The notes beneath the pieces were generated by a model, which was not told the origin of the DNA, made no database searches, and worked only from the letters and a program-made list of their open reading frames with translations. Position numbers and translations under genes: made by a program. A DNA stretch of 64,000 nt. It comes from Chloropicon primus. Taxonomy: Eukaryota. The stretch spans positions 1,302,001 to 1,366,000 of the forward strand of contig CP060754.1 in assembly GCA_023205875.1 (NCBI GenBank), in the 5' to 3' direction. Below are positions 3,819-55,497 of this stretch, piece after piece (the first letter of the stretch is position 1; each line of letters begins with the position of its first letter).

Positions 3819-3909
3819 ATGAGCAAGGTTCACTGAGAATTTTATGAAACTTTTGTTAAAAAAAAACTTTCAAAAATAGAGAAAACAGCCTAACCCCCAA
3901 GGCTCGCCC

Positions 3910-4520: not shown

Positions 4521-4660
4521 CCTCCTCCAAGCCAAAAAAGCAGGTTTCGATGACGAAATTAAGAAAGGAGCTGGCGGAAGGAAGGAGCGTGTGATTGGCG
4601 CTGCGTTGCACATCATTGCGAGCAAAGACAAAAAGAAAAGAAAAGGAGAAAGGCTTCGCT

Positions 4661-7337: not shown

Positions 7338-7498
7338 AGGGAAAATTATGATGATGATTCATTAAAAATACACACTTTGGCTTGGCTTGGCTTTGTGGCT
7401 GGCTCGGCGAACGATTAATAGAGAAGATTTTTAAGACAACACAGTTGGCTCCCACCGTCTGCATGTAGGAGCTGGTGGGTGCGGCTCCCCCCCGTGCC

Positions 7499-9733: not shown

Positions 9734-10368
9734 GGAAGACGACACACGAGTAGTCTGTCTGTCTTTCTGTCTGCAGCAAAGGATAAACACAACTCAACTC
9801 CTCCAGTAATGATGCTGATAATATGCTGATGCTGATGCTTGACTGTCGAGGTACCCAAAGGAAAGCAAGAGAGAAAGGGAGAAAAGAAGTGTGCGTGGTG
9901 TGAAGTGAATGCACGCGCCTCGTTCCCCTTCCTTCCCTGGCTCGTCTCGCCTCGGAGTCGAAGAAGAAGCAAACAAAAGTTGCTCCTCCCCTGCTGTCTG
10001 CGCTCGCCCAATGAACAAGATAGAAAACGATATCCAATCGAAACGCGCTGAAGCGAAGCGAAGGGGAGAGGAGGAGAGGAGGAGAGAGAGAGAGGAGGAG
10101 AGAGAGAGAGGAGGAGAGAGCGATTCTGAGACCGAGACCGAGACCGCGAGACCGATACCTCGCCTTCTTTCGGGTGGAATCCAATTGCGCTGTTGAAAGT
10201 GAGCGAGAGACTTGTCTTGGTCTCTGGTCTCTTGCGGAGGGAAAGGCAGGGAGAGAGGGGGGGAAGGGAAGGAGGCATCGTCTTTCTTATCGTGGAATAC
10301 CCGGGACACGGTCAGCGTCTGCGTCATCACCATCGCCGCCCCGGGCTAGCGCTCACTTGGGACAACTC

Positions 10369-10833
10369 ATGAAGACCGCGAGGCAGCTGAGGGCGGACGA
10401 GGTCGTGCAAGAGAGGGCAAAGTACCTGCTGGAGGTCGCCAAGCGCGGCGGCAGCCCGGGCGAGCCGTCGTCGTCCTCGTCGTCGTCGATACCCCGGTGC
10501 ATCGCGGCGAGGTGCGGCCACAAGGCCCTGAGCTTGCACCACGCGAACGCCCTGAGCACGCAGAGGCTCCTGCGAAGGCCGGAGGTCCTTTCCCTGTGCG
10601 GGTACTGCGGGTGCCGCCTGGACGACGACGATGACGCCAAGGGGCGAGGGGGAGGAGGTGAGTCGGAGGGGGCCGTGGTGGCCGTCAAGGGGAAGGCCCT
10701 GAGGAGCATCAGGAAGCACCTGAGGTCCAGGAGGAAGAAGAAAGTCCTTCTCCGGGCGACGTCCAGGGTCTGCAAGCTGTGCGGACGGAAGACGATCTTC
10801 AAGACCCTGAAAAGGGAAGAAGCGGCCGCCTAA
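10369..10833 (+). CDS. RNase P/MRP subunit Rpr2/Rpp21-like zinc-ribbon protein
   Basis: R..YL near the N-terminus, two CxxC pairs (LCGYCG, CKLCG), basic and small. Confidence 0.55.
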   Translation: MKTARQLRADEVVQERAKYLLEVAKRGGSPGEPSSSSSSSIPRCIAARCGHKALSLHHANALSTQRLLRRPEVLSLCGYCGCRLDDDDDAKGRGGGGESEGAVVAVKGKALRSIRKHLRSRRKKKVLLRATSRVCKLCGRKTIFKTLKREEAAA

Positions 10834-11960
10834 CAGAAAAACCACCTGAACAGCAGCAGCAGCAGCAGCAGCACTGAAGAAGAGGAAGAGGTGTTGGATT
10901 GGATTGGATTTGAATGGAATGGAATGGATGGTGGAGCAAGAAAGGTACGTTACAGGCTTGCCGCCAATCGAGTCGTCGCAAGAAAATTACTTGCTGAACT
11001 TGAACAATGTCTGGTGGCGGAACGACTTACCAGTTTTGGGGGTTGGGGGTGTAAAAAAAAACTATTATTATTTCTTGTTGTTTAATATGATTGCTTTTGC
11101 TTTAGTTCGTCATTTGTATTTCCTAGAATCAGATTCTCATTACTCCTTGCTTGGTTTGCTGGTTTTGTTTTTGTGTTTGATTCCCTGCTGGATGGTTCAC
11201 TGGTGCCTGTGATGGGACTTGAGATTGGTGATGGGACTTGAGGTTTTGGTTTCCCCGCTGTGTTGTTGTCTGTGAACGGAAAAAGAAGAAGAAGAACCAA
11301 AGAGGAAGGGGAACCAAACCCAACCCAACCAAAGAGAAGAAGAGGAGACTTCGTCGTTGTCGTTGTCGTTGTCGTTGTCAGAACAAACTAAAGTTTTAAC
11401 TAACAAAAAAGGAAGAAAAAAATCCAAAGGAAGGTCCTCCTTTGGATCTTATCCAAGTCGCCATGTCATCCTCCTTTTCTCGGCAGTAGCGTCTTCTCGG
11501 CCACTAGAATTTGTCCGATTAGAAAAGAGTAGAAAACCCGTTGCCGACTCTAACACGTTTTTTCTCCAAAAAGAGATTTCACCGCAAGTCGCATTCTCTA
11601 CACGTGGCCCGGAGAGGCATTATTAGCCTCAAGATTGGAAAAGAAAGCGCTTTTCGTAAAAGAGGCGTCGACCTCGAACAAACACAAACACAAACGCAAA
11701 CACTGCGCGAGACGAAGAGACGAAGAGACGAAGAACCCGAGGACCGAGGACGAGGTGAACTCCCCGCTTACGTCACGGCGGTCTGGCCTCCTTGGCGGCA
11801 TTCTGCTCCTCCTTTTGCGCTTCTTCCTTTTCCCAGAACAAGCGCACGAGGGCCTGGAAAAAGGAAAAGGGATTTCTCTCCCTCTCTCTCTTTGGCTCTT
11901 TGGCTCTCTCTTTCTGAGTGAGGACGACGACGGTGACGGCGACGCCGGGTGTTGCAGAGA

Positions 11961-13271
11961 ATGGTGCGCCACGACGGCGGTGGTGGTGGAGGAGGAGGCC
12001 TTGTGAAGGCTTCTTCTTCTGCTCCTCCTAATCCTAATCCCAAAAGCAGCAGCAGTCCGGGGCACGGCGGCAGCGAGCACGACTCGTGGTGGACGAACAT
12101 CGACAAGCCGAACGCGTGCTCGTCCTTCTCCGCGGAGAAGGACTGGTTCGCGTACCTGGAGGACATGCAGTACGAGTCGTCGGAGGACATGATCTCGACG
12201 TCCTTCGCGCTCCCGCGAGGGGGGGGAGCCAAGCACCTGGACCGCCTGGACCACCCGACGACGGACGAGGACGAGGGGGAGAACAACAACACGACCTCGT
12301 CGAGGACGTCGACGGACGGCCTGCTGCAGACGTACGTGTACGACGCCCTCCTGCAGCAGGGCATCAACGGGACGCAGCACTTTCCCTTGTGCTGCTCGAC
12401 GTCCTCCTCGCCGTCCACGGGTCACCTGGTGAGCATCTTCGACGCGAGCTTGGACAAGTACGACAAGCAGTTCTCCCTCAAGCCGGTGCAGATCTCCCCG
12501 GAGGAGTTCGAGAAGAGGAGGTTCTACCACTGCGGCAGGGGACCGGGCCGCAAGGCGTCCGGGCTGGTGATGAGCCACCACCACCTCGGGGTGGCGAAGA
12601 GGGGGAGGCAGGCCAAGGGGGCGACGGAGCCAGGAGCCAGGAGGCTGTCGTCCTCCTCCTCCTCGTCGTCGTCGCCGCACAAGCAGAGGAGCGTGCACTA
12701 CCGGGGGGTGAGGCGGCGACCCTGGGGGAAGTGGGCCGCCGAGATCAGGGACCCGACGAAGGGCATCCGGCTGTGGCTCGGGACGTTCAGCACAGCCAAG
12801 GACGCCGCGCTGAAGTACGACGAGGCCGCGAGGAAGATCAGGGGGAAGCAGGCCAAGTGCAACTTTCCCTTGGCGACGATGGCGGCGGCGACTAGGCAGG
12901 TGGAGGAGGAGGAGGAGGAGGAGATGGTGGTGATCGAGCAGCAGCAGCAGCAGGAGCAGGACCAGCAGCAGTCCTCGAGCAGCACGCAGATGAAGCTCGA
13001 GGCGACCATGAGCCCGACGACGACGACGACGACGACGACGATGAGCGGCGCCGGAACGAGGCCCTCGAGGTCCTCGAGCCTGAGGACGACGACGACGACG
13101 ACGACGAGCGGCGGCGTCGGAACGAGGCCCTTGAGGTCCTCCTCCCGGCGCTGCAAGTCGGTGTACCGCAGCGGGGAGCACGAGACGACGTCGACGACGT
13201 CGGCGGACAACAAGAGCAACAACGGCGGCGGTGGCGGGGAGTCGTCGGACTCGGACGGGACGATCGTCTGA
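11961..13271 (+). CDS. AP2/ERF transcription factor (single ERF domain)
   Basis: [20 protein letters not shown]...RLWLGTF.TA.DAA..YD.AA..IRG..A.CNF. Confidence 0.95.
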
Positions 13272-13683
13272 GTCTGAGTCTGAGGATGGACCAAGATGAT
13301 GATGATGAAGAAGGAAGAAGAAGAAGAAGAAGAAGTTTATGAACAACACAAAAATGAAACAGCAAGCATATGAAACAATGAGAATTAGTACAAGCATTCT
13401 TTTTATTCGTTTTTATTTCTTCCATTCTATTTTATTTTGCTTGGTGTGAAAGGAGAGAAAGGCAGGCAAGGCCCAGGTCGCGCGCGCCGCGCTTACGTTA
13501 CTCAATTCAGTTCAGTTCAGTTCAGTTCAGTTCAGTTGAATTGGAGTTCAAGTGAATTGGAGGCCCCAACGTTCCGTTCCATTCTTCTCGCAGCCAGATC
13601 GTCCAACTGCCAGCTACAACCCCCTCACCTCGCCGTTTCCTTACTCTCCTCTCCTCTTCCCTTCTCTCTCTTCTTCTTCTCTC

Positions 13684-14781
13684 TCAGTGGGCCTCGGTGA
13701 TCATGGTCCCCACGCCCTCGTCCGTGAGGATCTCCTGCAAGAGCGAGTGGGGCTGCCTTCCGTCGATGATGTGGGCGGCTTGAACGCCCTGCGCGATGGA
13801 GCGCACGCAGCACTGAACCTTGGGGATCATCCCCCCCGCGATGATCTCCTCGGTGATGAGGCCGCGGGTGGTCTGGATGTCCAGCTCCTTGTACAGGGTC
13901 CCGACGTCGTCCTTGTCCTTCAGGACGCCAGGGACGTCGGTCATCAGGATGAGCTTCTCCGCCCCGAGGCTCGCGGCGATCTCCCCGGCCGCGATGTCCG
14001 CGTTCACGTTCAGGGACTGGCCGGACTCGTCCGAGGCCACCGAGGCGATGACGGGGATGCTCCCCTTCTCCACGATGGCCCCGATGAGTGCGGGGTCGAC
14101 CCCGGTGACGTCCCCGACGTAACCGAGCTCCCTGTCGCTCGTCTGCCTGGCGCTGATGAGGTTGGCGTCCTTGCCGCATAGTCCGACCGCCTTCCCCCCC
14201 GCCTTGTTGATCAGGCTCACGATGCTCTTGTTCACCTTGCCCGCGAGGACGGCCTCCACGATCTCCATCGTCGCCTCGTCCGTCACCCTCAGCCCGTTGT
14301 GGAACCTCGGCTCGATCCCGACCTTGTCCAGCCACCTGTTGATCTCCGGTCCGCCGCCGTGGACCATCACGATCCTGATCCCCACGCAGGACAGGAGCAC
14401 CACGTCACTCACCACCCTCGCCTTCAGCGTCGGGTCCTTCATCGCCGCCCCGCCGTACTTGACCACGATGGTCTTGTTCGCGAACCTCTGCAGGTAAGGC
14501 AGGGCCTCCGCGAGGATCTGCACCCGGTCGAAGGCCGAAGGCTTAGGAGCAGCAGGACCCCCTGCTTCTGCTGCTGCTGCTGCTGCTTTCGTTGTTGTTG
14601 TTGTTGATGATGATGGGGTGGAGGAGGAGAGGTGATGGTGACGACGGAGACGACGGGTGGTAACGGTGGTGGTGGTGGTGGTGGCGGCGCGGCGTGCGAC
14701 CGATGGTGATGATGGTGGTGATCTCGTCGGCGGTGGTGCTGCTGCCGACCTGGCGGAGGCGAAGACGGCGGCGACGGCCAT
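13684..14781 (-). CDS. argB: Plastid N-acetylglutamate kinase
   Basis: Ser/Thr-rich transit peptide; [55 protein letters not shown]. Confidence 0.97.
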
Positions 14782-15334
14782 TGTTTGCTTGTGTGTGCTT
14801 GGTTTGGACTCCTCGCCCGTCGTCGCGTCGTCGTCGTCGGATTGTTTTTTTTGGATTGAGAGGAGAGGAGGAGAGAGAGGAGGAGGAGGAGGGGAGGAAG
14901 GAGGAGGAGGGGAGGAAGGAGGAGGAGATCGGTGGTGCACGGCGATGTAACCAGCGGCATGGCTTCTCGCATTGCAGAGGTCTTGGGACAAGGTGAGGAG
15001 CTCGCACGCCCTCTCCCTTTCCTTCTCCTCGTCGCTCAGTGGTCTGTTATTTGTGTGTTGAAGTTGAGGATACCCTTCTTCGTGGCACCGCTGGCCAAGG
15101 CATGGCAGTATGCCCGAGGTATTCGCGGCAGCATGGCACGTAAGGCATCGCTCCTGGACTTCCTTCTCCACATCCATCATCATCATCATCATCATCTCTC
15201 CGAAAAGCTGGAAGCTGCTGAGAACCACCTCGAAGAGGTCTGGCAAGGGCAACGGGAAGGAGACTCTGATGCTGCTGCTGATGCTACGGAGCAAGCGAAA
15301 CCAGGGGAGGAGTCGGAGAAGGAGATCTAAAACT

Positions 15335-15576
15335 CAGTGGGCTCGAAGCCAGGACCCGCCTTGCCCTTGGGACCCAATTGAATGCATGGTGTGGGCGGAC
15401 AGCAGGAAAGACCAGGACGTCATCGAATGGATCGATGCCAATTCGTAACCAAGAACAATGTCTCACGACGAACCTGTCATCGACCTTCGCTTCCTCTTCT
15501 GATTCCTCCTCCTCCTTTCTCCTTTGTTTTCTCTCTTCCGGTGGATTTTCTCCCTTCCGCTGAACCATCATAACGG
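15335..15576 (+). pseudogene. Orphan 3' fragment of the ankyrin-repeat gene (last repeat, stop codon and 3' flank)
   Basis: Encodes QWARSQDPPCPWD...VIEWIDANS*; 15417-15576 is identical by eye to 17376-17535; no F-box or earlier repeats lie upstream. Confidence 0.75.
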
Positions 15577-15647
15577 CCCGAGGCCACGAGGGGCCGAACG
15601 AGGACGAGCACGAGAGAGAAACGAAGAGGACGGGAGCGCGTGGAGGA

Positions 15648-15682
<35 letters not shown>

Positions 15683-15973
15683 ACAGGAAAGAAGGAAGCG
15701 TCGTCTCGTGCTCTTTCGAACGAGCTCTCGCGCGAAAGAAACGACCCAGTGGTGAGGATCTGGCGACACGAAACGCGAAAAATTGAGGCAGAAAGAAATC
15801 GAGGAGTAGATCACCGAGGAAGGGAGGCGACGACGAGGGCGGGATTTTGTGCCGGAGGTTTCTCTCGAGTGATAGACGAGTGGAAGGAGTGTCTTTTCCT
15901 CATTAGAACGAGCCCTCGCGCGCGACAAGAAGGACCCGGTGGTGAGGATCGTCTGAGGAGCACGGACGTGAAG

Positions 15974-17407
15974 ATGGCGGTGACGATGGAGGGCAAGAGG
16001 CAGAGGAGGGAGGGCAGGGATGCACTGGACGTGCTGCCGGGGGTACTGTGGAGCGTCATTGGCACGCATGTGGCCGACTACGACCGGGTCGCTTTCGGGT
16101 TTACCTGCAAGACGTTCCTCGAGGCGGTGACAATGGCGACGACGGCGACGGCGACGGCGGCGAACCCTGAGCAGAAGAAGGTTGCTCTGAAGACGGACCT
16201 GACGGACGACAAGTTGTTCGAGCAGATGCCTTGCTTCAGTTTGGGTTGGTTCCAGTGGGTGCTTCGGTCGTTCAAAAGGAGGAAGGGAGCACGGCATAAC
16301 TGGGAATACTACGATCACTTGTACGACTCTGACCTGCTGCACCTCGCCGCTTTCCAGGGCAGCAAGAAGGTGATCAAGTGGTTGGTGAGCCAAGGGATCC
16401 CTTTGGATATGGAGCGCGAGGATGACGATGGTATGGAGCGCGAGGATGACGATGGGGTACCCGCATCGGTGGTAGCAGCTAAAGGAGCTGCTTGCGGAGG
16501 TCATATTGAGTTGCTCGAATGGTTGAGGAGCGAGGGGTGCTGGTTTGATGAAGAGACTTGTGCTCGTGCAGCTGGAGGAGGTCACCTTCACGTTCTGCAG
16601 TGGGCTCGAAGCCAGGACCCGCCTTGCCCTTGGGACGCGGGGACTTGTTCTTGGGCAGCTCGAGAAGGTCACCTTGACGTTCTGCAGTGGGCTCGAAGCC
16701 AGGACCCGCCTTGCCGTTGGGACCGGCAGACTTGTTCTTCTGCAGCTGAAGGAGGTCACCTTGAGGTTCTGCAGTGGGCTCGAAGCCAGGACCCGCCTTG
16801 CCGTTGGGACCGGCAGACTTGTTCTTCTGCAGCTGAAGGAGGTCACCTTGAGGTTCTGCAGTGGGCTCGAAGCCAGGACCCGCCTTGTGATTGGAACTAC
16901 GAGACTTGTAAAGAGGCAGCTTCAAGAGGTCATCTTCACATTCTGCAGTGGGCTCGAAGCCAGGACCCGCCTTGCCCTTGGGACGAGGAGACTTGTTATG
17001 AGGCAGCTCGAAGAGGTCACCTTGACGTTCTGCAGTGGGCTCGAAGCCAGGACCCGCCTTGTGATTGGGACAAGAGGACTTGTAGAGAGGCAGCTCGAAG
17101 AGGTCACCTTCACATTCTCCAGTGGGCTCGAAGCCAGGACCCGCCTTGCCCTTGGAACTGGGAGACTTGTGATTGGGCAGCTCGAAGAGGTCACCTTCAC
17201 ATTCTCCAGTGGGCTCGAAGCCAGGATCCGCCTTGCCCTTGGAACAAGGCGACTTGTGAGTGGGCAGCTGGAGGAGGTCACCTTGAGGTTCTGCAGTGGG
17301 CTCGAAGCCAGGATCCGCCTTGTGATTGGAACCCAGAGGATTGCAGAAGAGAGGCGAAGTACTACAATCAACAGCACGTCATCGAATGGATCGATGCCAA
17401 TTCGTAA
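15974..17407 (+). CDS. F-box-like + ankyrin-repeat protein (algal/giant-virus-type 'LQWAR..GCPWD' family)
   Basis: N-terminal LDVLPGVLWSVIGTHVADYDRVAFGFTCKTF (F-box-like), then nine 29-aa repeats xxLQWARSQDPPCxWxxxTCxxAAxxGHL. Confidence 0.85.
   Translation: MAVTMEGKRQRREGRDALDVLPGVLWSVIGTHVADYDRVAFGFTCKTFLEAVTMATTATATAANPEQKKVALKTDLTDDKLFEQMPCFSLGWFQWVLRSFKRRKGARHNWEYYDHLYDSDLLHLAAFQGSKKVIKWLVSQGIPLDMEREDDDGMEREDDDGVPASVVAAKGAACGGHIELLEWLRSEGCWFDEETCARAAGGGHLHVLQWARSQDPPCPWDAGTCSWAAREGHLDVLQWARSQDPPCRWDRQTCSSAAEGGHLEVLQWARSQDPPCRWDRQTCSSAAEGGHLEVLQWARSQDPPCDWNYETCKEAASRGHLHILQWARSQDPPCPWDEETCYEAARRGHLDVLQWARSQDPPCDWDKRTCREAARRGHLHILQWARSQDPPCPWNWETCDWAARRGHLHILQWARSQDPPCPWNKATCEWAAGGGHLEVLQWARSQDPPCDWNPEDCRREAKYYNQQHVIEWIDANS
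16592..17345 (+). repeat. Coding tandem repeat, 87-bp unit, about 9 copies
   Basis: cagtgggctcgaagccagga(c/t)ccgccttg recurs every 87 nt from about 16598 to about 17294. Confidence 0.95.
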
Positions 17408-29111: not shown

Positions 29112-29453
29112 ACCAACGAGAGAGGAAGAAGAGTCAGCCTTCTTGGAAGCTCCGCCACCAGATTGTCACGTCCCGCTCAGCCGACTTCGCAGCATCGCAA
29201 GCGAAGCCCCGAAGGGATTCGAACAACACGCGCTTCCCAATGATCGCCTCTAGCGCACTCGACACAAGCACGCCGAGCATCATCATGGTTTGATCATTTT
29301 GCCTTCGCCCTTTCTTACCTCCTCGTTGTCTGTTGCCTTTAAGGTCATCTTCCCCTCCGCGTGTTTGTACTTGACGACGTATCGCGTGTGGAGAGGATTC
29401 CTCCGTGCCATCTCCTCCGCCTTGGCGGCGAACTCGTCCCACTCCAGCAGCAT
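28894..29453 (-). CDS. SRP9: Signal recognition particle 9 kDa protein; exons 29453-29319 and 29046-28894
   Basis: WDEF...AEEM..RNP..TRYVVKYKH.EGK..LKATDN / CFTYKTNQASDLKKMEKLN; 272-nt GTAAGA...CAG intron. Confidence 0.92.
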
Positions 29454-29513
29454 GACCTCCTCCTCTTGGGCCTTTGGCTGGCTCCTCTCTCTCCTTGGCT
29501 CGCGAACCCTAGA

Positions 29514-31807
29514 GGAGAGAGAGAGAACGGATAACGCCTCGCGGGGGTTTGTCGGCGCATGACGGGGAGAGGGTAGGTGCTTGTCGAGGACTTTGTGCGC
29601 GAACGGTGACGGGGAAAGGGAGGAGGTGTGGAAAGAACGCAAGGGCGTCTCAAGGGCTTTCGATTGATACCTCAGCTGAAGGTTTTCACGAAAAAGAGGA
29701 GTGGTCCTCCCTTTGAGACGACAGGCGTTAGAGAAGGCTGCCTCGAAGTTTGTTTTGCGAGTTGTTGGCTCGGTTCGTGAAGAGGAAGAGGAAGGCAAGT
29801 CTTCGTCGAGCTGTGCAGTGTTTTGCGGTGCTTTGTTTCATCATGAGGCGTCCCACGAGACAGAGACGCTGGACACGCACCAGGTCGACGGCGGCGATGA
29901 TCGCGGCGGCGAGGGCCGTCGCCGGTGGTGATGACGACAAGGGAGGGTTGTCCCCAGGTGCCATGGACATGGACGTGGACGGAGAGTGTGTGCAGAGCTT
30001 CATGACGGACTCCACCACCATCATCGAAGAGGAGAGCGACAGTGAGGACATGGACATGGACGGAGAGTGTTTGGGGAGCTTCGTGACGGGCTCTACGACG
30101 ATCATCGAAGAGGAGAGCGACAGTGAGGAGGATAGTGGTGGTGCGGATTCGTCCTGCCAACCTGAGACAGCGCAGGTGACTATGATGGGAGGCAACGCAC
30201 GTCCTTTCAGGACTCGCAATGGAAAGAGAACTCTTGTGGCTGCCGTCTATCTCGTTCTTCAAGATGCGGGAGGGAGCGTGCGCGCCAAAGAGATCCATGC
30301 ACGGATCCAGGCCAAGAAGTTGTATGTGTTCAGGCGGAGAGATGGCTCTGTTCATACTGATCCGAAGAGTATGCGGAAAACTGTCAGGTCTGCTTGTTCA
30401 AGGAGCCCCTTCTTTGTTCGCACTGCCTTGGGAAGATATGCCATTGCCAAGAAATACTTGAATGGGTCCAATACTCAAGGTGCGCCTGGCACCTCACCGC
30501 TTCGGGATGCCATCTATCGCGTTCTTCAAGATGCGGGAGGGAGCTTGCGCGCCAAAGAGATCCTTGGCCGGATCCGGGCCAAGAAGTTGTATGTGTTCAG
30601 GCGGAGAGATGGCTCTGTTCATACTGATCTGCAGAGAATGCGGAAAGCTGTCAATTGGGCTTGTATAGCGAGCCCCTTCTTCGTTCGCACTGCATACGGA
30701 AGATATGCCATTGCCAAGGAATCCTTGAATGGGTCCAATACTCAAGGTGCTGTCAGGCCCTCACCGCTTCGGGATGCCATCTACCGCGTTCTTCAAGATG
30801 CGAGAGGGAGCTTGCACTACGAAGAGATCTTTGGTCGGATCCGGGCGAAGAAGCTACATGTGTTTAGGCGAAAAGATGGTTCTGTTTCTACTGATCTGAA
30901 GAGAATGAGGGATACTGTCATCTCTGTTTGTTCACACAGCCCCCGCTTTGTTCGCACTGAACGCGGAACTTATGCCATTGCCAAGAAATACTTGAATGGG
31001 TCCAATACTCAAGATGCTGTCAGCACCTCACCGCTTCGGGATGCCATCTATCGCGTTCTTCAAGATGCGGGAGGGAGCTTGCACTACAGAGAGATCCAGG
31101 CCAAGGTCCAGGCCAAGAAGTTGTATGTGTTCAAGCGGAGAGATGGTTCTCTTTCTACTGATCTGAAGAGAATGAGGGATACTGTCATCTCTGTTTGTTC
31201 ACACAGCCCCCGCTTTGTTCGCACTGCACGTGGAACTTATGCCATTGCCAAGAAATACTTGAATCGATCAACCGCCGACAACCTCAATGAGCAGAATTCC
31301 AACGCCGCCAACAACAACAACAACATGAAGACGACGAGATCTCCTTCTCCTTCTCCCTATGCTTTGGATTTGAGAGAGGCTCTCGAGTCCGGCCTGATGA
31401 CGGAGGAGGAATACGCCAGCGCAGTGCAGGAGGCCCAGCGTTATGACAGCAAGTCCCCGGAGAAGAAGAGAGAGATCGCGGACTACAACGAGGCGTTGAG
31501 GATCATCTTTGCGGACGCATCTCTTAAGCTGAGCGACAAGGAACAATGCATTGTGAAGAGAGAGTACCTGGAAGAGGTCGGGCTCTGCAATCCTCGTCGT
31601 TCGTCGAAGAGAAGACCAAGCAAGGCGGTCCCTTCCATTGTCAAGGTCAAGCAGGAAGAGTGAGGAGGGAGATTACCGTGAGAGCAAAACAAGCCGTAGG
31701 AGACTAGATATAAGCAAGCTGTAGATACAAATATCACTCTGTGCCATCATGGCCTTTTCTCCTCCTCCTCATCGCCACCGACGACACGAGACCGCCGCCG
31801 CGTACGT
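29514..31807 (+). repeat. Duplicated cassette, copy A (inverted copy at 53558-55497)
   Basis: Shared sequence runs from ggagagagagagaacggataacgcc to accgccgccgcgtacgt, covering upstream region, ORF and 3' flank. Confidence 0.92.
29843..31663 (+). CDS. Protein with four tandem 89-aa HARE-HTH-like (winged-helix) repeats
   Basis: Unit LRDAIYRVLQDAGGSLxxxEIxxxIxAKKLY...D..xMxxxVxxxC..SPxFVRTxxGxYAIAK at a 267-bp period; fits the HARE-HTH (ASXL/RpoE/Mrr N-terminal) pattern; acidic N-terminus; start uncertain. Confidence 0.75.
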   Translation: MRRPTRQRRWTRTRSTAAMIAAARAVAGGDDDKGGLSPGAMDMDVDGECVQSFMTDSTTIIEEESDSEDMDMDGECLGSFVTGSTTIIEEESDSEEDSGGADSSCQPETAQVTMMGGNARPFRTRNGKRTLVAAVYLVLQDAGGSVRAKEIHARIQAKKLYVFRRRDGSVHTDPKSMRKTVRSACSRSPFFVRTALGRYAIAKKYLNGSNTQGAPGTSPLRDAIYRVLQDAGGSLRAKEILGRIRAKKLYVFRRRDGSVHTDLQRMRKAVNWACIASPFFVRTAYGRYAIAKESLNGSNTQGAVRPSPLRDAIYRVLQDARGSLHYEEIFGRIRAKKLHVFRRKDGSVSTDLKRMRDTVISVCSHSPRFVRTERGTYAIAKKYLNGSNTQDAVSTSPLRDAIYRVLQDAGGSLHYREIQAKVQAKKLYVFKRRDGSLSTDLKRMRDTVISVCSHSPRFVRTARGTYAIAKKYLNRSTADNLNEQNSNAANNNNNMKTTRSPSPSPYALDLREALESGLMTEEEYASAVQEAQRYDSKSPEKKREIADYNEALRIIFADASLKLSDKEQCIVKREYLEEVGLCNPRRSSKRRPSKAVPSIVKVKQEE

Positions 31808-44101: not shown

Positions 44102-44605
44102 GCATCGTGTAAACACCTTAACGAAGATCCAACGGAGTGCCAACCAAGCCCCCACCTTCTCCCCATCTCTCTCTCGATCGATCGATCGCCTTCCACTCCT
44201 AACACCCTCACCACAGCGCTGATTCTTTCGAGTGAGAGCTCTTTCGAAAGATCAAGAGGCGAAGATTCCCCTCACTCCCACTCCCGCCCCCGTCCCTCCC
44301 GTCCCACGCCGTCCCTCATTGCCATGCGTCCCTCCCTCCACCAATCCCGATTGGGGCAGTTACCTTTCTGGAGCCCAGTGGACCAAAACCAAATTGACGG
44401 CTTCGATCGAGTCGAGCGATCGTCGCAAGGCTTTGCGGCAAGTGCGTCGTCGAAGGCGCGCGACGAGTGCGAGGAGAAGGGCGAAGCGAGTGGTGGACCG
44501 GACGCCGCCGCCTTCCTCACGCGCGAGCGAGGTCGAGGTCGAGATCGAGGTTTCCGTCCTCGTTCACGTCGTCGCCGGACGAGGCCTCACTCACGGGGCG
44601 CCGCT

Positions 44606-47600
44606 ATGGCTGCGGCAATGGACGCGACCATGGATGACGTCGTGGTGACGGAGGAGGAGGAAGAGGTCCTGCGGGAGAAGGCGCGGAAATGGTCGAAGCA
44701 CGCGTCGAAGCGGTTCGGGAACAAGAAGAGGCACGGGTACGTGGAAAGCAACACGAACATGCTTCCCGCCGAGGTGTGCAGGAAGATAGTGAGGGATCAC
44801 GGGGACATGAGCTCGAGGAAGTTTCGTCACGATCGTCGGGTGTACCTCGGAGCTCTCAAGTTCCTTCCTCACGGGGTCTACAAGCTCTTGGAGAACGTGC
44901 CGATGCCGTGGGAGCAGGTGCGGATGGTTCCGGTGCTCTACCACGTCACCGGGGCGATATCGTTCGTGAACGAGACTCCGAAGGTCATCGAACCGATCTT
45001 CGTGGCCCAGTGGGCGAGCATATGGCTCATGCAAAGGAGGGAGAAGAGGGACAGGAGGCACTTCAAGAGGATAAGGCTGCCGTGCTTCGACGACGAGGAG
45101 CCGATATTGGATTACGCGGACAACCTGCTTGACGTGGAGCCACTGGACGCGATCGAGCTGGAGCTCGACGAGGAGGAGGACGAGAGCATTATCGAGTGGT
45201 TTTACGACCACAAGCCCCTCATCGACGACCCAAGGTTCGTGAACGGCACGTCCTACAAGAAGTGGAAGCTGCCGTTGCCGGTGATGAGCAACCTATACCG
45301 GATCGCCTCCCAGTTGCTGTCCGATATCGTGGACCAGAACTACTTCTACCTCTTCGACAAGGATTCCTTCATCACGGCAAAGTCTCTGAATATGTGCGTC
45401 CCGGGGGGACCAAAGTATGAGCCCCTGTTTCGTGACATGGACGCCCGGGACGAGGACTGGAACGAGTTCAACGATATCAACAAGCTGATCATCCGTCAGC
45501 CTCTTAGGACGGAGTACAAGATCGCCTTCCCCTTCCTGTACAACAACAGGCCCAGGAGTGTCAGGCTGGGAGCGTACCACGAGCCCATGTGCATGTACAT
45601 CAAGCAGGAAGACCCAGACCTGCCCGCATACCACTACGACCCGCTTATCCACCCCATAGCTGCGTACAGATCGTCCGCAAGGGCGAGCAGGGTTGGGGGG
45701 AGCGAAGGGGGAGAGGGGGGGAAGAGGAGGAAAGTCGAGGAGAACGGGGTGAGCGGTCACCCACCCGCCTCCTGGGACGACGACAATGACGACAACGACT
45801 TTGAGGAGGACGACGAGTTCGTTCTTCCCCGAGGCGTGAACGCGTTTTGCAGCACGAGCAAGCTCGAGACACCGAATACGAGGGATGCAATCGAGTTGTG
45901 GTGGGCCCCTCGGCCTTTCAACCAGCGCAGCGGCCGGACGAGACGTGCGATGGATGTCCCCTTGGTCAACACCTGGTTCAAGGAGCACTGCCCCAGGGAC
46001 AACCCCGTGAAAGTCAGGGTGAGTTACCAGAAGCTGCTCAAGTGCTACGTCTTGAATGCCTTGCACCACCGAAAGCCAAAGTCCATGAAGAGGAAAGACC
46101 TGATGAAGTCCCTCAAGGCGACCAAATTTTTTCAGCAGACGGAGCTGGATTGGGTGGAGGCAGGCTTGCAAGTGTGCAGGCAAGGGTACAACATGCTCAA
46201 CCTCCTCATCAATCGAAAGAACCTGAATTACCTTCACCTGGACTATAACTTCAACCTCAAGCCAGTGAAGACGTTGACGACGAAGGAGAGGAAGAAGAGC
46301 AGGTTTGGAAATGCCTTTCACCTTTGCAGGGAGATCCTGAGGCTCACCAAAATGATTGTGGATGCCCACGTCCAGTACAGGCTGGGGCATGTGGACGCCT
46401 ACCAGCTGGCGGACGGCCTCCAGTACACCTTTGCGCACGTGGGGCAACTCACGGGAATGTACAGGTACAAGTACAGGCTGATGCGCCAGATCAGGATGAC
46501 AAAGGACTTGAAGCACCTTATCTACTACCGCTTCAACACGGGAAGCGTTGGCAAGGGCCCTGGAGTGGGTTTCTGGGCCCCCATGTGGCGTGTTTGGCTC
46601 TTCTTCCTCAGGGGCATGATCCCCTTGCTGGAAAGGTGGCTAGGAAACCTGCTGGCCAGGCAGTTTGAGGGAAGGAGCAGCAAGGGCGTGGCGAAGACGG
46701 TGACGAAGCAGAGGATCGAGTCGCACTTTGATTTGGAACTAAGGGCTGCAGTGATGCACGATATTCTTGACATGATGCCTGAAGGGGTCAAGCAGAACAA
46801 AGCGAGGACGATACTCCAGCACCTTTCGGAGGCGTGGCGCTGCTGGAAAGCGAACATTCCTTGGAAGGTCCCAGGCTTGCCTGCACCAATAGAGAACATG
46901 ATTATCAGGTACGTCAAGTCCAAGGCGGATTGGTGGACTAACGTGGCCCACTACAACCGCGAGCGCATCAGGAGAGGCGCGACTGTGGACAAGACTGTCG
47001 TCAGGAAGAATCTCGGCCGCCTCACAAGGCTGTGGCTGAAGGCTGAGCAGGAGAGGCAGCACAACTATCTGAAGGATGGCCCTTACGTGAGCCCTGAAGA
47101 GGCCGTGGCAATCTGGACCACGGCGGTGCACTGGCTCGAGTCGCGGAAGTTCTCGCCGATCCCCTTTCCCCCTCTCTCGTACAAGCATGACACAAAGCTT
47201 TTGATTCTGGCCTTGGAGCGACTCAAGGAGTCTTACACCGTCTCCGTGAGGTTGAACCAGACGCAGAGGGAGGAACTTGGGCTGATTGAGCAGGCTTATG
47301 ACAACCCTCACGAGGCACTTTCACGGATCAAGAGGCACCTGCTCACCCAGAGGTCCTTCAAGGAGGTTGGAATAGAGTTCTTGGACTTGTACAGTCACCT
47401 TATTCCTGTGCATGATATTGAGCCCCTGGAGAAGATATCTGATGCTTACCTCGACCAGTATCTGTGGTACGAGGCAGACAAGCGGCAACTTTTCCCGAAC
47501 TGGATCAAGCCCAGCGACAATGAGCCTCCGCCGCTGCTCGTGTACAAGTGGTGCCAAGGCATCAACAACCTGACGGATGTCTGGGAGACGGCAAATGATG

Positions 47601-50600
47601 AATGTGTTGTGATGATGCAGACGAGGCTCGAGAAGCTCTTCGAGAAGATCGACCTCACGCTGCTCAACAGGCTGCTGAGGCTGATCGTTGATCACAACCT
47701 CGCCGATTACATGACGTCAAAGAACAACGTGGTGATCTCGTACAAGGACATGTCGCACACCAACTCGTACGGACTCCTTAGGGGCCTGCAATTCAGCTCG
47801 TTCATCACGCAGTACTATGGACTGATCGTGGACCTCCTACTCCTGGGTTTGACCAGGTCGAGCGAGATCGCTGGCCCAGCGAACCATCCAAACGATTTCC
47901 TCTGCTTCAAGAATGTCCAGGCAGAGACAAAGCATCCGATAAGGCTGTACTGCCGGTACATTGACAAGGTCTACATGCTCTTTAAGTTTGAGGCGGACGA
48001 GACCAAGGATTTGATCCAGCGGTATCTCACGGAGCACCCTGACCCAAACAATGAAAACATTGTTGGCTATAACAATAAGAAGTGCTGGCCAAGGGATGCC
48101 AGAATGAGGCTGATGAAGCACGACGTGAACCTGGGGAGGGCTGTCTTCTGGGACATGAAGAACAGACTGCCAAGGAGCATGACAACTTTTGAGTGGGAGA
48201 ACAGCCTCGTCAGTGTGTATAGCAAGGACAACCCAAACGTCTTGTTCAGCATGGCTGGCTTTGAGGTCAGAATACTTCCCAGGTGCAGAATGTCTCAGGA
48301 AGGTTTTGCGCAGAGGGAAGGCGTCTGGAGCCTCACCAACGAGGTGACGAAGGAGAGGACGGCCCAGGCATTCCTGAGAGTGGACGATGAGGCGATGAAG
48401 GCGTTTGAGAACAGGATAAGACAGGTTCTCATGTCCTCTGGTGCAACGACCTTCACCAAGATTGCAAACAAGTGGAACACGGCTCTGATTGGATTGATGA
48501 CCTACTACAGGGAGGCCGTCATCCATACCCAAGAGCTCCTTGACCTGCTGGTGAAGTGCGAGAACAAGATCCAGACGAGAATCAAGATTGGCCTTAACTC
48601 AAAGATGCCTTCGAGGTTCCCTCCTGTTCTGTTCTACACGCCAAAGGAAATCGGTGGTCTTGGGATGCTCAGCATGGGCCACATCTTGATCCCTCAGTCG
48701 GATTTGAGGTATGCCGGACAGACTGACTTGGGAGTCACGCACTTCCGCGCGGGAATGACCCACGAAGAGGAGCACCTCATACCAAACCTGTACAGGTACA
48801 TCCAACCCTGGCTCAGCGAGTTCACGGACTCGCAAAGAGTGTGGGCAGAATACGCGCTGAAAAGGCAAGAAGCTATGTCGCAGAACAGGCGTTTGACCTT
48901 GGAGGATTTGGAGGATAGCTGGGACAGGGGAATACCGAGGATCAATACCTTGTTCCAGAAGGACAGGCACACCCTGGCCTATGATAAGGGCTGGAGAATA
49001 AGGACGGACTTCAAGCAGTACCAGATCACGAGGCAGAATCCGTTCTGGTGGACCCACCAAAGGCACGACGGCAAGCTGTGGAACCTGAACAACTACAGAA
49101 CGGACGTGATCCAGGCCCTTGGAGGCGTGGAGGGTATCTTGGAGCACACCCTCTTCAAGGGGACCTACTTTCCCACGTGGGAGGGTCTGTTTTGGGAGAA
49201 GGCCTGCTTTGCCACAGGCACCAAGCTGCTCCTTGCCGACGGCTCAACCATTACGGCTGGGGAGGTGAGGAGAGGGCATCAGCTCATGGGTGATGATGGC
49301 ACGCCCCGCCTGGTGCAGGAGGTGGTCACGGGCCTGAGCAAGCTTTACGAGATCACCTTTGGGTATTCTAAGGAGGAGCCTCTTGTCGTGACAGGCAACC
49401 ACATCTTGTGCTTCAAGACCACGAGCCGTTTCTGCATGTGCTGGTCAGATGAGCGGGGTGCTGTTGTGGTTTACTACTTTGATGGGAATTCATGCCGCAG
49501 TAAGCAGTTCCGTGTCCATGCTGACTGGGATTCATTCTACTACAGCAAGGAGGAAGCCCATGCTGCTGCTCAGAAGTACCTGAAGGAGGTGCATCGCTCA
49601 GGTCGTGGCCTCACTGTGATTGACAACAATGCTTCTGGCCTCACCGGAATCGAGGAGCGCAGCGGTTCGATTCGTGTCCTTGTTCCAGGCGAGAAGAACA
49701 AGCGCCGCGTGTTCTCCTGGAGTGCAAAGGGGCGCAAGTCTGCTGACACTGTGATGGTAAAGAACCGCGAGGAGGCGTTCCAGCAAGCACACTCCATGAA
49801 TCAAGATTTTCGCAACAAGGGCCAGTGCATGGAGGGCAAGGAAAACCTGAAGGAGATGAATCTGTCCTGGTGCAAAGCTGATGGGGCGTATCGCGTAGCC
49901 CACAAGGTGGATGGCAAGACCAAGACCATGAGCTTCAACGTGACCAATCGCATCTACTACGAAAATCGCGCCAGTGCTGAGCGGGCTGCTGAGGCTTACA
50001 TGAGTGGGCTTGGCAAAGCAAACATGGGCAAGGGGGAGGTGTGTGAAACGACAGTGGAGGAGTACCTTGAGCTGCCTGTTTCTGTGCAGCGCATGCTGCT
50101 GTTCTACCGTGCGCCAGCCCTCAAGTTCAACGAATCGCTCAGTGTGGAGCAGATGCCTGTGAACCCCTACTTTCTCGGACTTTGGCTTGGAGATGGCACA
50201 TCAACAACAATCAGCAACAATCATGAGGAGCAGATTATTTCCTTCCTGCAACAGCATGCTGATGGGCTTGGGATGAAGCTCACTAACTCTGATGGCAGCA
50301 TTGCATACCGCACGGTGGGCGGCTTCGGCAACACCAATGCCCTCTTGGATGCTCTTCGGAGGCTTGGTGTGGTCAGGGATGTGGGACAGGCAGGATCTCA
50401 GAAGGATTGCAAGCACATTCCACGGATTTATCTGGAGGCGAGTGAAGAGGTGCGGCTGATGCTACTTGCTGGCCTCATTGATTCTGACGGCAGCTACCAT
50501 GATTCAAGCCTGCACTTTGCCTTTACACAGGCTGAGCGATGGCACAAGACGCTGTTTGAGAATGTTCTCTTCCTTGCTCGTAGCCTGGGCTTCAATGCCA

Positions 50601-53383
50601 ACTATGCACGCCACTGGAGAGAGGGTGGGTTTTGTGAGTCGCTGCAGGCTGAGATTCCTGCAGGCTGGTGCCTCAGCATGAAGGTGACGGGCGACATTGA
50701 CAGGGTACCTACCCTGCTCCCACGCAAGCAGGCTCGCAAACGTTCAGATCGTGACTGGAGTGTGCACTCGGTGATGCAGGTGAAGCAAAGGCCACAGCCA
50801 GAGCTGTACGCGGGTTTCCTTGTGGATGGCAACAAGCGTTTCCTGAGGAGCGACTTTCTTGTGGTGCACAACAGTGGCTTTGAGGAGAGCATGAAATTCA
50901 AGAAGCTGACCAGAGCCCAGCGTTCGGGTTTGAACCAAATCCCCAACAGGCGTTTCACCTTGTGGTGGTCCCCGACAATCAACAGGGCGAACGTGTACGT
51001 GGGTTTCCAGGTTCAGCTGGACTTGACAGGCATCTTCATGCACGGGAAGATTCCGACGTTGAAGATCTCTCTGATCCAGATCTTCAGGGCTCACTTGTGG
51101 CAGAAGATCCACGAGTCCATCGTCATGGACCTCTGCCAGGTCCTCGATAAGGAGCTTGACGCCCTGGAAATTGAGACGGTGCAGAAGGAGACGATCCACC
51201 CGAGGAAGAGCTACAAGATGAACTCTTCCTGTGCCGACATCCTTCTCTTCGCGGCATTCAAGTGGCAGATTTCCAAGCCCTCTTTGATGACGGAGGGCAA
51301 GGACGTGTTTGACCAGAAGCCGAGCAACAAGTACTGGCTTGACGTCCAGCTGAGGTGGGGTGATTTCGACTCTCACGATATTGAGAGATACACCAGGGCC
51401 AAGTTCCTTGACTATACCACGGACAACATGTCGATCTACCCGAGCCCCACGGGCTGCATGATTGGGCTCGACTTGGCTTACAATCTCCACGCTGGGTTTG
51501 GCAACTTCTTCCCGGGGATGAAGCCCCTGTTGTCCCAGGCAATGGGAAAGATCATGAAGTCCAACCCTGCTCTGTACGTGCTGAGGGAGAGGGTCAGAAA
51601 GGGGCTGCAGCTTTACAGCTCCGAGCCAACTGAGCCTTACCTGAACAGCCAGAACTACGGGGAGCTGTTTTCCAACCAGCTCATTTGGTTTGTGGATGAC
51701 ACGAACGTTTACCGCGTCACGATACACAAGACCTTTGAAGGTAACCTCACGACCAAGCCGATCAACGGTGCCATCTTCATCTTCAACCCCAGGACCGGGC
51801 AGCTGTTCTTGAAGATCATTCATACGTCGGTGTGGGCAGGCCAGAAACGCCTGGGCCAGCTCGCAAAATGGAAGACAGCAGAGGAGGTGGCTGCCCTGAT
51901 TCGGTCGCTCCCTATCGAAGAGCAACCGAAGAGGATCATCTGCAGCAGGAAGGGAATGCTCGACCCGTTGGAGGTCCACTGCCTGGATTTTCCTAACATC
52001 GTGATCACTGGAACGGAGCTCCAACTGCCGTTCCAAGCTGCCCTGAAGGTGGAGAAGTTCGGAGACTTGATTCTCAAGGCCACGGAGCCCCAAATGGTCC
52101 TTTTCAACATCTACGACGACTGGCTGAAATCGATCTCGTCCTACACGGCCTTCTCGAGGCTGATATTGATCCTCAGGTCCTTGCACGTGAATGTGGACAA
52201 GACGAAGATGCTCCTGAGACCAGACAAGAGCATCGTTTCGGAGGCCCACCACGTTTGGCCCTCGCTGACGGACGAGCAGTGGATCAAGGTCGAGGTCGCG
52301 CTGAAGGACCTCATCCTGGCAGACTTTGCGAAGAAGAACAACGTGAATGTCGGGGCCCTGACCCAGACGGAGATCAGGGACATCATCCTTGGTGCAGACA
52401 TTGCGCCACCTTCCATGCAGCGCCAGCAGATTGCGGACATCGAGAAGCAGGCCAAGGAATCCTTGCACCAGAGCGCGGTGACCACCAAGACTGTGAACAA
52501 GCACGGAGAGGAGATGGTGGTGACGACGACCTCTGCGTATGAGCAGCAGGTCTTCAGCAGCAGGACGGACTGGCGGGTGAGGGCCATCTCGTGCTCGAAC
52601 CTTCACTTGCGTGTGAACCACATTTACGTCAATTCGGAGGACCTGCACTTCGACACGGGGTACACGTACATCCTGCCGAAAAACGTTTTGAAGAAGTTCA
52701 TCATGATCTCGGACCTCAGGACTCAGGTCATGGGCTTCATGTACGGTGTCAGCCCGCCGGATCACTCTCAGGTCAAGGAGATCAGGTGCATCGTGATGCC
52801 GCCGCAGTGGGGCAACCACCAGCAGGTGAATGTGCCGCAGCAGCTTCCGGACCACGACTACCTGGACGACCTCGAGCCCCTGGGGTGGCTCCACACCCAG
52901 CCCAACGAGACGGGCGGTCTCAGCGAAAAGGACATCCAGATGCACAGTGGGATCCTGGAGAGGCAGGAGTCTTGGGACGGGGAGAGGTGCATCGTGGTCA
53001 CCTGCAGCTTCACCCCTGGCAGCGTGAGCCTCACAGCCTATAAGCTTACCCCGCAGGGCTACGAGTGGGGAAGGGGCCAGAACAAGGACGGAGGAAGAGG
53101 AGGTGGTGGCAGTGGGGGAGAGCCCCAGCCCGGATCCTTCGAGAAGGTCCAGATGCTCTTGAGCGATCGGTTCATGGGTTACTTCATGGTCCCCGAGATC
53201 GGGTCCTGGAACTACAACTTCATGGGCGTCAAGGCTTCGCCAAACATGTCCTGGAACATCAAGCTGGACAACCCGAAGGAGTTCTACAATCCGCTGCACC
53301 GTCCTACGCACTTCTTGGAGTTCTCCGGCTCGGGCGCAGAAGGAAAGCTCTCCCAGGCCGACGTGGAGGACCACCTGGCCTAA
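44606..53383 (+). CDS. PRP8: Pre-mRNA splicing factor PRP8 precursor (2925 aa including a 556-aa intein; about 2369 aa mature)
   Basis: Continuous, highly conserved PRP8 sequence ([23 protein letters not shown]-like and RNaseH-like regions, [13 protein letters not shown], Jab1/[13 protein letters not shown]...HRP.HFL.F). Confidence 0.99.
49205..50872 (+). mobile_element. PRP8-a intein with LAGLIDADG homing endonuclease
   Basis: In-frame insertion between FWEKA and SGFEES; block A CFATGT, block B VTGNHIL, blocks [13 protein letters not shown] and [39 protein letters not shown] followed by +1 Ser. Confidence 0.97.
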
Positions 53384-53557: not shown

Positions 53558-55497
53558 ACGTACGCGGCGGCGGTCTCGTGTCGTCGGTGGCGATGAGGAG
53601 GAGAAAAGGCCATGATGGCACAGAGTGATATTTGTATCTACAGCTTGCTTATATCTAGTCTCCTACGGCTTGTTTTGCTCTCACGGTAATCTCCCTCCTC
53701 ACTCTTCCTGCTTGACCTTGACAATGGAAGGGACCGCCTTGCTCGGTCTTCTCTTCGACGAACGACGAGCATTGCAGAGCCCGACCTCTTCGAGGTACTC
53801 TCTCTTCACAATGCATTGTTCCTTGTCGCTCAGCTTAAGAGATGCGTCCGCAAAGATGATCCTCAACGCCTCGTTGTAGTCCGCGATCTCTCTCTTCTTC
53901 TCCGGGGACTTGCTGTCATAACACTGGGCCTCCTGCACGGCTTCGGCGTACTCCTCCTCCGTCATCAGGCCGGACTCGAGAGCCTCTCTCAAATCCAAAG
54001 CATAGGGAGAAGGAGAACTCATCGTCTTCATGTTGTTGTTGTTGTTGGCGGCGTTGGAATTCTGCTCATTGAGGTTGTCGGCGGTTGATCGATTCAAGTA
54101 TTTCTTGGCAATGGCATAAGTTCCACGTGCAGTGCGAGCAACGCGGGGGCTGTGTCTACAAGCAGACCTGACACAGTGCAGCATTCTCTCCAGATCAGTA
54201 GAAACAGAACCATCCATACGCCTGAACACATGTAGCTTCTTGGCCTGGATCCGTGCATGGATCTCTTTGACGCGCAAGCTCCTTCCCGCATCTTGAAGAA
54301 CGCGATAGACGGCATCCCGAAGCGGTGAGGTGCTGACAGCATCTTGAGTATTGGACCCATTCAAGGGTTCCTTGGCAATGGCAGAAGTTCCACGTGCAGT
54401 GCGAACAAAGCGGGGGCTCTTTGAACAAGCAGTCCCGACACATATCCGCATACTCTCCGGATCAGTAGAAACAGAACCATTCAGACGCCTAAACACATAT
54501 AGCTTCTTCGCCTGGATCCGGCCAAGGATCTCTTTGGCGCGCAAGCTTCCTCCCGCATCTTGAAGAACACGATAGATGGCATCCCGAAGCGTTGAGGTGC
54601 TGACAGCACCTTGAGTATTGGACCCATTCAAGTATTCCTTGGCAATGGCATATCTTCCCAAGGCAGTGCGAACGAAGAAGGGGCTCGCTATGCAAGCCCC
54701 ATTGACAGCTTTCCGCATTCTCTTCGGATCAGTATGAACAGAGCCATCTCTCCGCCTGAACACATACAACTTCTTGGCCTGGATCCGTGCATGGATCTCT
54801 TGGGCGCACAAGCTCCCTCCCGCAGCATCTTGAAGAACGAGATAGACGGCAGTCACAAGAGTTCTCTTTCCATTGCGAGTCCTGAAAGGACGTGCGTTGC
54901 CTCCCATCATAGTCACCTCTGCTGGCTCAGGTTGGCAGGACGAATCCGCACCACCACTATCCTCCTCACTGTCGCTCTCCTCTTCGATGATCGTCGTAGA
55001 GCCCGTCACGAAGCTCGCCAAACACTCTCCGTCCACGTCCATGTCCATGGCACCTGGGGACAACCCTCCCTTGTCGTCATCACCACCGGCGACGGCCCTC
55101 GCCGCCGCGATCATCGCCGCCGTCGACCTGGTGCGTGTCCAGCGTCTCTGTCTCGTGGGACGCCTCATGATAAAACAAAGCACCGCAAAACACTGCACAG
55201 CTCGACGAAGACTTGCCTTCCTCTTCCTCTTCACGAACCGAGCCAACAACTCGCAAAACAAACTTCGAGGCAGCCTTCTCTAACGCCTGTCGTCTCAAAG
55301 GGAGGACCACTCCTCTTTTTCGTGAAAACCTTCAGCTGAGGTATCAATCGAAAGCCCTTGAGACGCCCTTGCGTTCTTTCCACACCTCCTCCCTTTCCTC
55401 GTCCCCGTCCGTGCACAAAGTCCTCGACAAGCACCTACCCTCTCCCCGTCATGCGCCGACAAACCCCCGCGAGGCGTTATCCGTTCTCTCTCTCTCC
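53558..55497 (-). repeat. Duplicated cassette, copy B (inverted relative to 29514-31807)
   Basis: Reverse complement matches copy A at both ends and throughout; shorter by one 267-bp repeat and one ~85-bp acidic repeat. Confidence 0.92.
53699..55168 (-). CDS. Paralog with three tandem HARE-HTH-like repeats
   Basis: N- and C-terminal parts are nearly identical to 29843-31663; three 89-aa units. Confidence 0.75.
   Translation of the reverse strand: MRRPTRQRRWTRTRSTAAMIAAARAVAGGDDDKGGLSPGAMDMDVDGECLASFVTGSTTIIEEESDSEEDSGGADSSCQPEPAEVTMMGGNARPFRTRNGKRTLVTAVYLVLQDAAGGSLCAQEIHARIQAKKLYVFRRRDGSVHTDPKRMRKAVNGACIASPFFVRTALGRYAIAKEYLNGSNTQGAVSTSTLRDAIYRVLQDAGGSLRAKEILGRIQAKKLYVFRRLNGSVSTDPESMRICVGTACSKSPRFVRTARGTSAIAKEPLNGSNTQDAVSTSPLRDAVYRVLQDAGRSLRVKEIHARIQAKKLHVFRRMDGSVSTDLERMLHCVRSACRHSPRVARTARGTYAIAKKYLNRSTADNLNEQNSNAANNNNNMKTMSSPSPYALDLREALESGLMTEEEYAEAVQEAQCYDSKSPEKKREIADYNEALRIIFADASLKLSDKEQCIVKREYLEEVGLCNARRSSKRRPSKAVPSIVKVKQEE

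Follow-up and report, generated by a model that had tools for sequence, protein, structure and literature searches.

Tandem HARE-type winged-helix units with a variable helix 3 form a Chloropicon primus-specific protein family

Two duplicated genes of the green alga Chloropicon primus led us to a family of proteins with tandem winged-helix units. The family is real, was not previously described and belongs to the HARE-HTH domain family. The explanation that we favor, and consider rather probable, is that of a dispersed, C. primus-specific family whose tandem units are reshuffled by gene conversion and likely serve as sequence-specific DNA-binding modules, the variable helix 3 of each unit being predicted to read bases. 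On our best reading, by analogy, the proteins would work like KRAB-zinc-finger or PRDM9 arrays without being a member of either group.

Results

Two duplicated genes encode seven winged-helix units

The window, by which we mean the whole stretch of 64,000 nucleotides that was analyzed (assembly GCA_023205875.1, contig CP060754.1, positions 1,302,001 to 1,366,000), is compact eukaryotic DNA. Self-BLAST and alignment delimited two copies of a duplicated block, and we refer to their genes as gene A and gene B:

29514..31807, + strand, duplicated block A: upstream region, gene and 3' region, common to block B
29897..31663, + strand, gene A: intronless ORF, 588 aa, four units; second in-frame ATG at 29843
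29897..30196, + strand, acidic disordered N-terminus of gene A: 26 D/E and 2 K/R per 100 aa
30230..30496, + strand, unit A1, winged helix: helix 3 at 30362-30403
30497..30763, + strand, unit A2, winged helix: helix 3 at 30629-30670
30764..31030, + strand, unit A3, winged helix: helix 3 at 30896-30937
31031..31264, + strand, unit A4, winged helix: helix 3 at 31163-31204
31355..31660, + strand, conserved C-terminal helical tail of gene A: four helices, pLDDT about 55
53558..55497, - strand, duplicated block B
53699..55114, - strand, gene B: intronless ORF, 471 aa, three units
54593..54862, - strand, unit B1: helix 3 at 54686-54727; A1-like scaffold with an A2-like helix
54326..54592, - strand, unit B2: helix 3 at 54419-54460
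54092..54325, - strand, unit B3: helix 3 at 54152-54193

The flanks of the two blocks share 93-100 matches per 100 alignment columns and the arrays 80-92 (self-BLAST and alignment). TRF reported 267-bp arrays at 30241-31264 (3.8 copies) and 54092-54851 (2.8 copies). A first-pass annotation of this DNA had listed seven 267-bp units in two paralogs and quoted their helix strings; TRF and translation gave four plus three units, and every quoted string was exact. The helix-3 DNA of A3 and A4 is identical. The region of the gene A N-terminus contains an 81-bp duplication (29965-30129), the array is basic (70 K/R versus 25 D/E), and the C-terminal tail has a weak SHOCT match, a basic cluster and two psi-K-x-E motifs (VKRE and VKQE), the latter two features being a putative nuclear localization signal and putative SUMO sites.

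Gene A lies head to head with SRP9 (29319-29496) and gene B with a NamZ-like muramidase gene (55521-56894), whose ATG is 24 bp from the end of block B. Since both genes are head to head with a neighbor, the duplicated upstream region may be a shared promoter. No TIR or TSD was found at the ends of either block, nor poly(A), fixed ends or a transposase, and we therefore rejected a DNA transposon or retrocopy; copies of the block elsewhere start and stop at several places. An empty-site check of the gene B locus found no bridging contig of X13, X8, X6 or X2. We also rejected a diversity-generating retroelement target because the variable codons change at all four bases and not specifically at adenine, and no reverse transcriptase was found among 23 proteins scanned.

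Gene A has a counterpart, A3770_01p07630, that is 99% identical (4 residues differ). Gene B is syntenic with A3770_01p07700; the two have identical tails, and their arrays differ by 39 residues. In a comparison of units, the second one of A3770_01p07700 clusters with A3 of the window. The gene order L9, SRP9, A, SBF, TRAPPC9, 07660, DENND6, PPIP5K, PRP8, B is the same in the window and in the published gene table (PMC6731263).

The units have a HARE-type winged-helix fold

A HARE-type winged-helix fold had been proposed from the sequence, and the profile search, AlphaFold2 and Foldseek agree with it. Against PF05066 (HARE-HTH) the gene A and gene B proteins scored 55.1 and 41.0 bits, above the cut-off of 25.9; among single units, two of seven exceeded the cut-off (A4 with 29.9 bits and B2 with 27.9 bits) and six of seven gave any match. 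AlphaFold2 modeled three helices and a wing in each 89-aa unit, with disordered linkers (pLDDT < 50). Unit A2 modeled alone has the order H1-H2-insert-H3-wing (pLDDT 86.6). The insert between H2 and H3 comprises 16 residues and was modeled as a loop with two bridges, or a hairpin (pLDDT about 80); the HARE-HTH trait stated in PMC11037411 is an extra helix inserted in the HTH motif.

The top Foldseek rows for the unit were winged helices only, none at an E-value of 0.001. TM-scores were 0.62-0.71 for forkhead-DNA complexes (FOXA 0.71), 0.62 for RNAP delta and 0.55 for Rok, the top match in the PDB and viral libraries, and the matches also included Z-alpha, with both protein-binding and Z-DNA-binding winged helices represented. 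PF23159 matched weakly (20 bits versus a cut-off of 27.6). Whole-protein structure matches were tandem winged-helix proteins such as TFIIIC tauB and SelB. None of the seven window units matched PF00250 (forkhead), and neither the unit nor its profile found a winged helix in sequence searches of the PDB. A domain scan of both proteins found no nuclease, PHD, KRAB, SCAN, ZAD, PR/SET, C2H2 or catalytic domain.

The family is dispersed, transcribed and specific to C. primus

A first homolog search returned 23 proteins, namely 20 named C. primus proteins, window gene B and 2 unnamed proteins, and a search for shorter proteins gave 31 additional homologs. The architecture is constant, with an acidic N-terminus, one to four units, an Asn-rich linker and the helical tail; tail-only and array-only genes also exist, and many members are truncated. 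At least 11 named C. primus records consist of the C-terminal tail alone, some of them clustered on chromosome 8, and could be decay products, truncated annotations or modulators. In HOP50_16g78960, the family tail is fused behind an unrelated hydrophobic segment.

As far as the consulted parts of PMC12301720 go, orthogroups OG0000020 and OG0000026 are C. primus-specific, contain 20 and 18 genes in each strain, spread over 11 chromosomes, carry the label 'hypothetical protein' on all genes but one, and have no equivalent among the C. roscoffensis orthogroups. In the portion of the table of PMC6731263 covered here, the two syntenic genes have no homolog in 13 other green algae and show RNA-seq depths of 43.8 and 32.5, values that may include multi-mapped reads. 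The family is transcribed. Three sequencing runs, each from a different study and presumed to be RNA, contained spliced neighbors as well as family contigs at a likeness of at least 85%, not assignable to gene A. Summed contig depth was about 3900-17000 in the block versus 107-162 in the flanks, which fits many copies and is not a copy number.

Among the species-specific families of C. primus, this is one of the larger ones, and it lacks annotation. In the published gene table (PMC6731263), nine members are labeled K01006 (PPDK), a label that is spurious because a later genome paper reports C. primus to lack PPDK. A term search in the accessible text of the two C. primus genome papers gave no mention of the family. 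Our literature search found no paper joining 'Chloropicon' and 'HARE-HTH' and none on tandem winged helices under selection; most subscription papers lay outside this search and may note tandem algal HARE arrays.

Units are shuffled between genes and differ between strains

Of 78 extracted units, we removed 7 that duplicated the window genes and 6 with an odd length, 13 in all, and retained 57 unique units of the C. primus type. Judged by their patterns of shared sites, the units are mosaics, clearly shaped by recombination: B1 most resembles A1 outside helix 3 and A2 within it, 271 of 741 site pairs are incompatible in the four-gamete test, and linkage (r2) falls with distance across the 57 units.

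The two annotated strains have an ANI of 99.91% and are perfectly collinear. We compared 12 named syntenic gene pairs, matched by locus tag. The helix code is identical in six pairs, differs by a 3-residue deletion in one and is different in five, four of which also differ in unit number. Heterozygosity or polishing errors in a repeat family could account for some of these differences. Unit number and helix content change between paralogs and strains, as the first-pass annotation had anticipated.

Variation is concentrated in helix 3

The variable helix had been taken for the third helix of the fold, and this was borne out: the modeled helix 3 covers unit positions 45-58 and coincides with the entropy peak. 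Among 14-residue windows, entropy is highest in the one that begins at position 45, the first position of the modeled helix 3, a concentration greater than expected by chance (permutation p = 0.002). A larger set of 69 units carries 58 different helices and 52 five-site words. With helix exposure assigned by the helical pattern, exposed sites average 2.08 bits in helix 3 versus 0.70 in helix 1 and 0.80 in helix 2; entropy peaks at position 50 (3.2 bits, 12 residue types), followed by 57, 51, 53 and 58. The four helix residues said to be fixed, D44, M48, V52 and C56, are invariant in all seven window units; among the 57 unique units, D, V and C are present in 57 and M in 56. The motif SPxFVRT was said to follow the helix; B3 instead reads SPRVART. 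The scaffold had been called near-constant, which was too strong, as positions 18-19, 23, 37 and 42 and the wing positions 61, 67 and 69 also vary (1.4-2.0 bits).

We computed dN/dS at the DNA level for the seven window units, which are related and recombining. In helix 3, dN is 0.45 and dS 0.198 (pairwise dN/dS 2.27), compared with 0.145 and 0.196 (0.74) in the rest of the unit and a unit-wide ratio of 0.98. As the earlier reading had it, variation is thus uneven, with amino-acid change concentrated in helix 3 and dN above dS there. Local hypermutation of helix 3 was ruled out because its synonymous divergence equals that of the rest of the unit. A codon bootstrap of helix-3 dN gave 1.07-4.59 against unit-wide dS and 0.88-6.61 against helix-3 dS. 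Minimum-change counts gave ratios of 1.67 for helix 3 and 0.78 for the rest, with p = 0.010 against unit-wide synonymous sites and p = 0.20 against helix 3's own, and a Fisher test of helix 3 versus the rest gave p = 0.15. Since the bootstrap and minimum-change results differ by test, these sequence comparisons lend moderate support to selection on helix 3.

These data bear on the strongest competing explanation, to which we give perhaps a one-in-five standing: a churning, weakly constrained family in which exposed helix-3 residues are near-neutral, conversion mixes old variants, and DNA binding is non-specific or the proteins matter little. Such a family would fit the unit-wide dN/dS near one, the conservative tests that are not significant, the many truncated, tail-only and array-only copies, and the absence from C. 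roscoffensis orthogroups. However, relaxed constraint would not readily explain why variability is so much lower at the exposed sites of helices 1 and 2, why helix-3 dN is about twice dS while dS equals that of the rest, or why core residues and reading frames are kept; a second family, described below, also varies at the same positions.

A second family and the forkhead register

Searched with a profile, 1.84 billion representatives yielded 48 matches, among them a second group (group II, with the C. primus family as group I) of unnamed proteins that have 1-4 HARE units and come from metagenome and marine catalogue records. Among its 27 helices, positions 50, 54 and 58 carry 3.1-3.6 bits, and V52 and C56 are fixed in all 27, the search pattern itself having required V/I and C/I. 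In hhalign, group I aligned to group II at 97.6%, on V52 and C56. A quick tree built from 88 rows and 75 columns, with C. primus represented by 20 sampled units, placed each group on one side of a branch (SH-aLRT 94 and 92) and did not join them. Scans of viral contigs with both families found no relative, a metagenome scan gave 168 pattern matches, 1 of them a distant bacterial-type HARE protein, and one match at 0.76 in the Atlas search was uninformative. Bacterial-type proteins with two to six tandem HARE units also occur, some fused to Mrr, HEPN or sigma-like domains.

Group II aligned weakly to FOXA1 (E 1.2), with Asn, Ser, Arg and His at positions 50, 51, 53 and 54. For FOXO1, PMC8034652 describes base contacts by Asn211 and His215 and a backbone contact by Ser218, a spacing of i, i+4, i+7. 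By this indirect and weak route, the FOXO1 contacts would map to unit positions 50, 54 and 57, and the variable sites may include, on equally indirect and weak grounds, those aligning with the base-reading Asn and His of forkhead proteins.

In the manner of a variable repeat receptor, the variable surface might instead have proteins or RNA (such as viral products) as its ligands, and not double-stranded DNA. We regard this as improbable. Cullin, RPA, SelB and Z-alpha winged helices are among the fold matches, but the variation is highest on that face of the helix with which forkhead proteins read bases, and both the array (strongly so) and the tail are basic.

Discussion

Most known examples of fast-diversifying tandem DNA-binding arrays are animal C2H2 zinc fingers and bacterial TALEs. 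If such arrays were also built from winged helices, in an alga whose genome measures 17.5 Mb, the strategy would have evolved with another fold. Among known systems, HARE-HTH proteins (PF05066; ASXL1, HB1, RNAP delta, Mrr-type fusions) are akin to the C. primus family in the Pfam cut-off passed, the winged-helix fold and the bacterial-type relatives with 2-6 HARE units. The C. primus family differs in having no nuclease, PHD or other chromatin domain, and in its near-identical tandem units, about 20 paralogs and hypervariable helix, and in the insert between H2 and H3, which was modeled as a loop or hairpin. Forkhead domains give the best TM-scores and have the same helix-to-strand register, but the C. 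primus units are tandem, do not match PF00250 and have variable residues in place of the N-S-I-R-H motif. The xenogeneic silencer Rok is the top Foldseek match, with a weak PF23159 match; it has one domain, which reads the minor groove, and the C. primus units fall below the PF23159 cut-off.

KRAB, SCAN and ZAD zinc-finger proteins resemble the C. primus family in combining a constant flank domain with a variable tandem DNA-binding array, and in lineage-specific expansion, gain and loss of units and tail-only copies; the C. primus proteins differ in their 89-aa winged-helix modules, 1-4 per protein, 15-aa flexible linkers and dispersed loci. TALEs share repeat units with variable specificity residues, but the C. 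primus arrays have neither a 34-aa repeat nor a long rigid array and have six or more variable sites per unit. We rejected TALE membership, which entails 33-35-aa repeats, a long array and a two-residue code, and a TALE-like programmable code, suggested in the first-pass annotation, is not supported because there are only 1-4 units and the linkers have a pLDDT below 50.

The PRDM9 array is likewise built of minisatellite-like units with gene conversion, allelic polymorphism and change concentrated at predicted base-contact sites. The C. primus family has concerted evolution of its arrays, and its helix 3, which holds the candidate base-contact sites, has a dN/dS of 1.7-2.3 on seven units (p 0.01-0.2 by test). 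It differs in being multigene, in lacking PR/SET, KRAB and C2H2 domains and in being transcribed where meiosis genes are not. We think it very unlikely that the arrays are PRDM9-like or drive-like, marking recombination sites, centromeric or self/non-self DNA, with turnover reflecting intragenomic conflict in meiosis: concerted evolution with helix diversification resembles PRDM9, and dispersed copies undergo non-allelic conversion, but there is no catalytic or KRAB domain, there are about 20 loci instead of one, and the transcripts occur in RNA data in which meiosis genes are nil or very low (PMC6731263). Equally slim is the chance that the units are readers of 6mA or 5mC, in line with the modified-base reading proposed for HARE-HTH domains and mentioned in the first-pass annotation; the proposal accords with PF05066 membership and is quoted in PMC4738411 and PMC11037411, but it derives from domain context, the latter giving a suggestion only, helix 3 has no conserved pocket among the 57 unique units, its would-be reading surface is the least conserved, and the examined part of the gene table (PMC6731263) has no convincing DNMT, Dicer or Argonaute row, the sole DNMT label there being secondary and without algal homologs.

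Under the favored explanation of sequence-specific DNA-binding modules, helix 3 of each unit would insert into the major groove, where positions 50, 51, 53, 54, 57 and 58 would set a short motif and wing positions 61, 67 and 69 would tune it. One to four flexibly linked units could then sum to longer sites, and the constant ends, acidic at the N-terminus and helical at the C-terminus, would recruit a shared partner or oligomerize, most likely to repress. New specificities would start as point changes in the helix, probably selected, and then spread by conversion. According to PMC6212790, Rok contacts the minor groove through the beginning of its helix 3; because this top fold match uses another mode, the units may bind the major or the minor groove. 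Conflict with mobile or viral DNA, which the fast turnover suggests, would be the most likely driver, with about an even chance within the favored explanation. IS605-type transposase families are also C. primus-specific, and repeats make up 8.3-9.1% versus 5.5-6.0% in C. roscoffensis, a two-species coincidence and not evidence of targeting.

A bolder extension, which we offer tentatively and consider doubtful, is that marine picoeukaryotes built a zinc-finger-like winged-helix repertoire at least twice, with helix swapping making new specificities that silence mobile elements or viruses via a shared C-terminal effector, and with tail-only genes as modulators. If true, nature would have provided about 60 forkhead-like recognition helices on a single scaffold, and a recognition code for winged helices might be read from this library. 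The 58 natural helices on one scaffold, in small soluble units, could yield a recognition code for forkhead-like helices, and the same units permit an initial test of whether it is sequence or modification that HARE-HTH domains read.

The window has two other features of note. PRP8 (44324-53383) contains an intein of 556 aa (49205-50872, + strand), inserted between WEKA and SGFEE, whose domains are of the Hint and LAGLIDADG-type homing endonuclease kinds; Bathycoccus is known to carry PRP8 inteins (PMC3749507). An ankyrin-like gene (15974-17407, + strand) has an 87-bp array at 16553-17322 that encodes roughly nine repeats of 29 aa, with helix residues differing from copy to copy. This gene is likely a member of a large ankyrin family specific to C. 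primus, and represents a second family of variable repeats alongside the winged-helix arrays in this genome.
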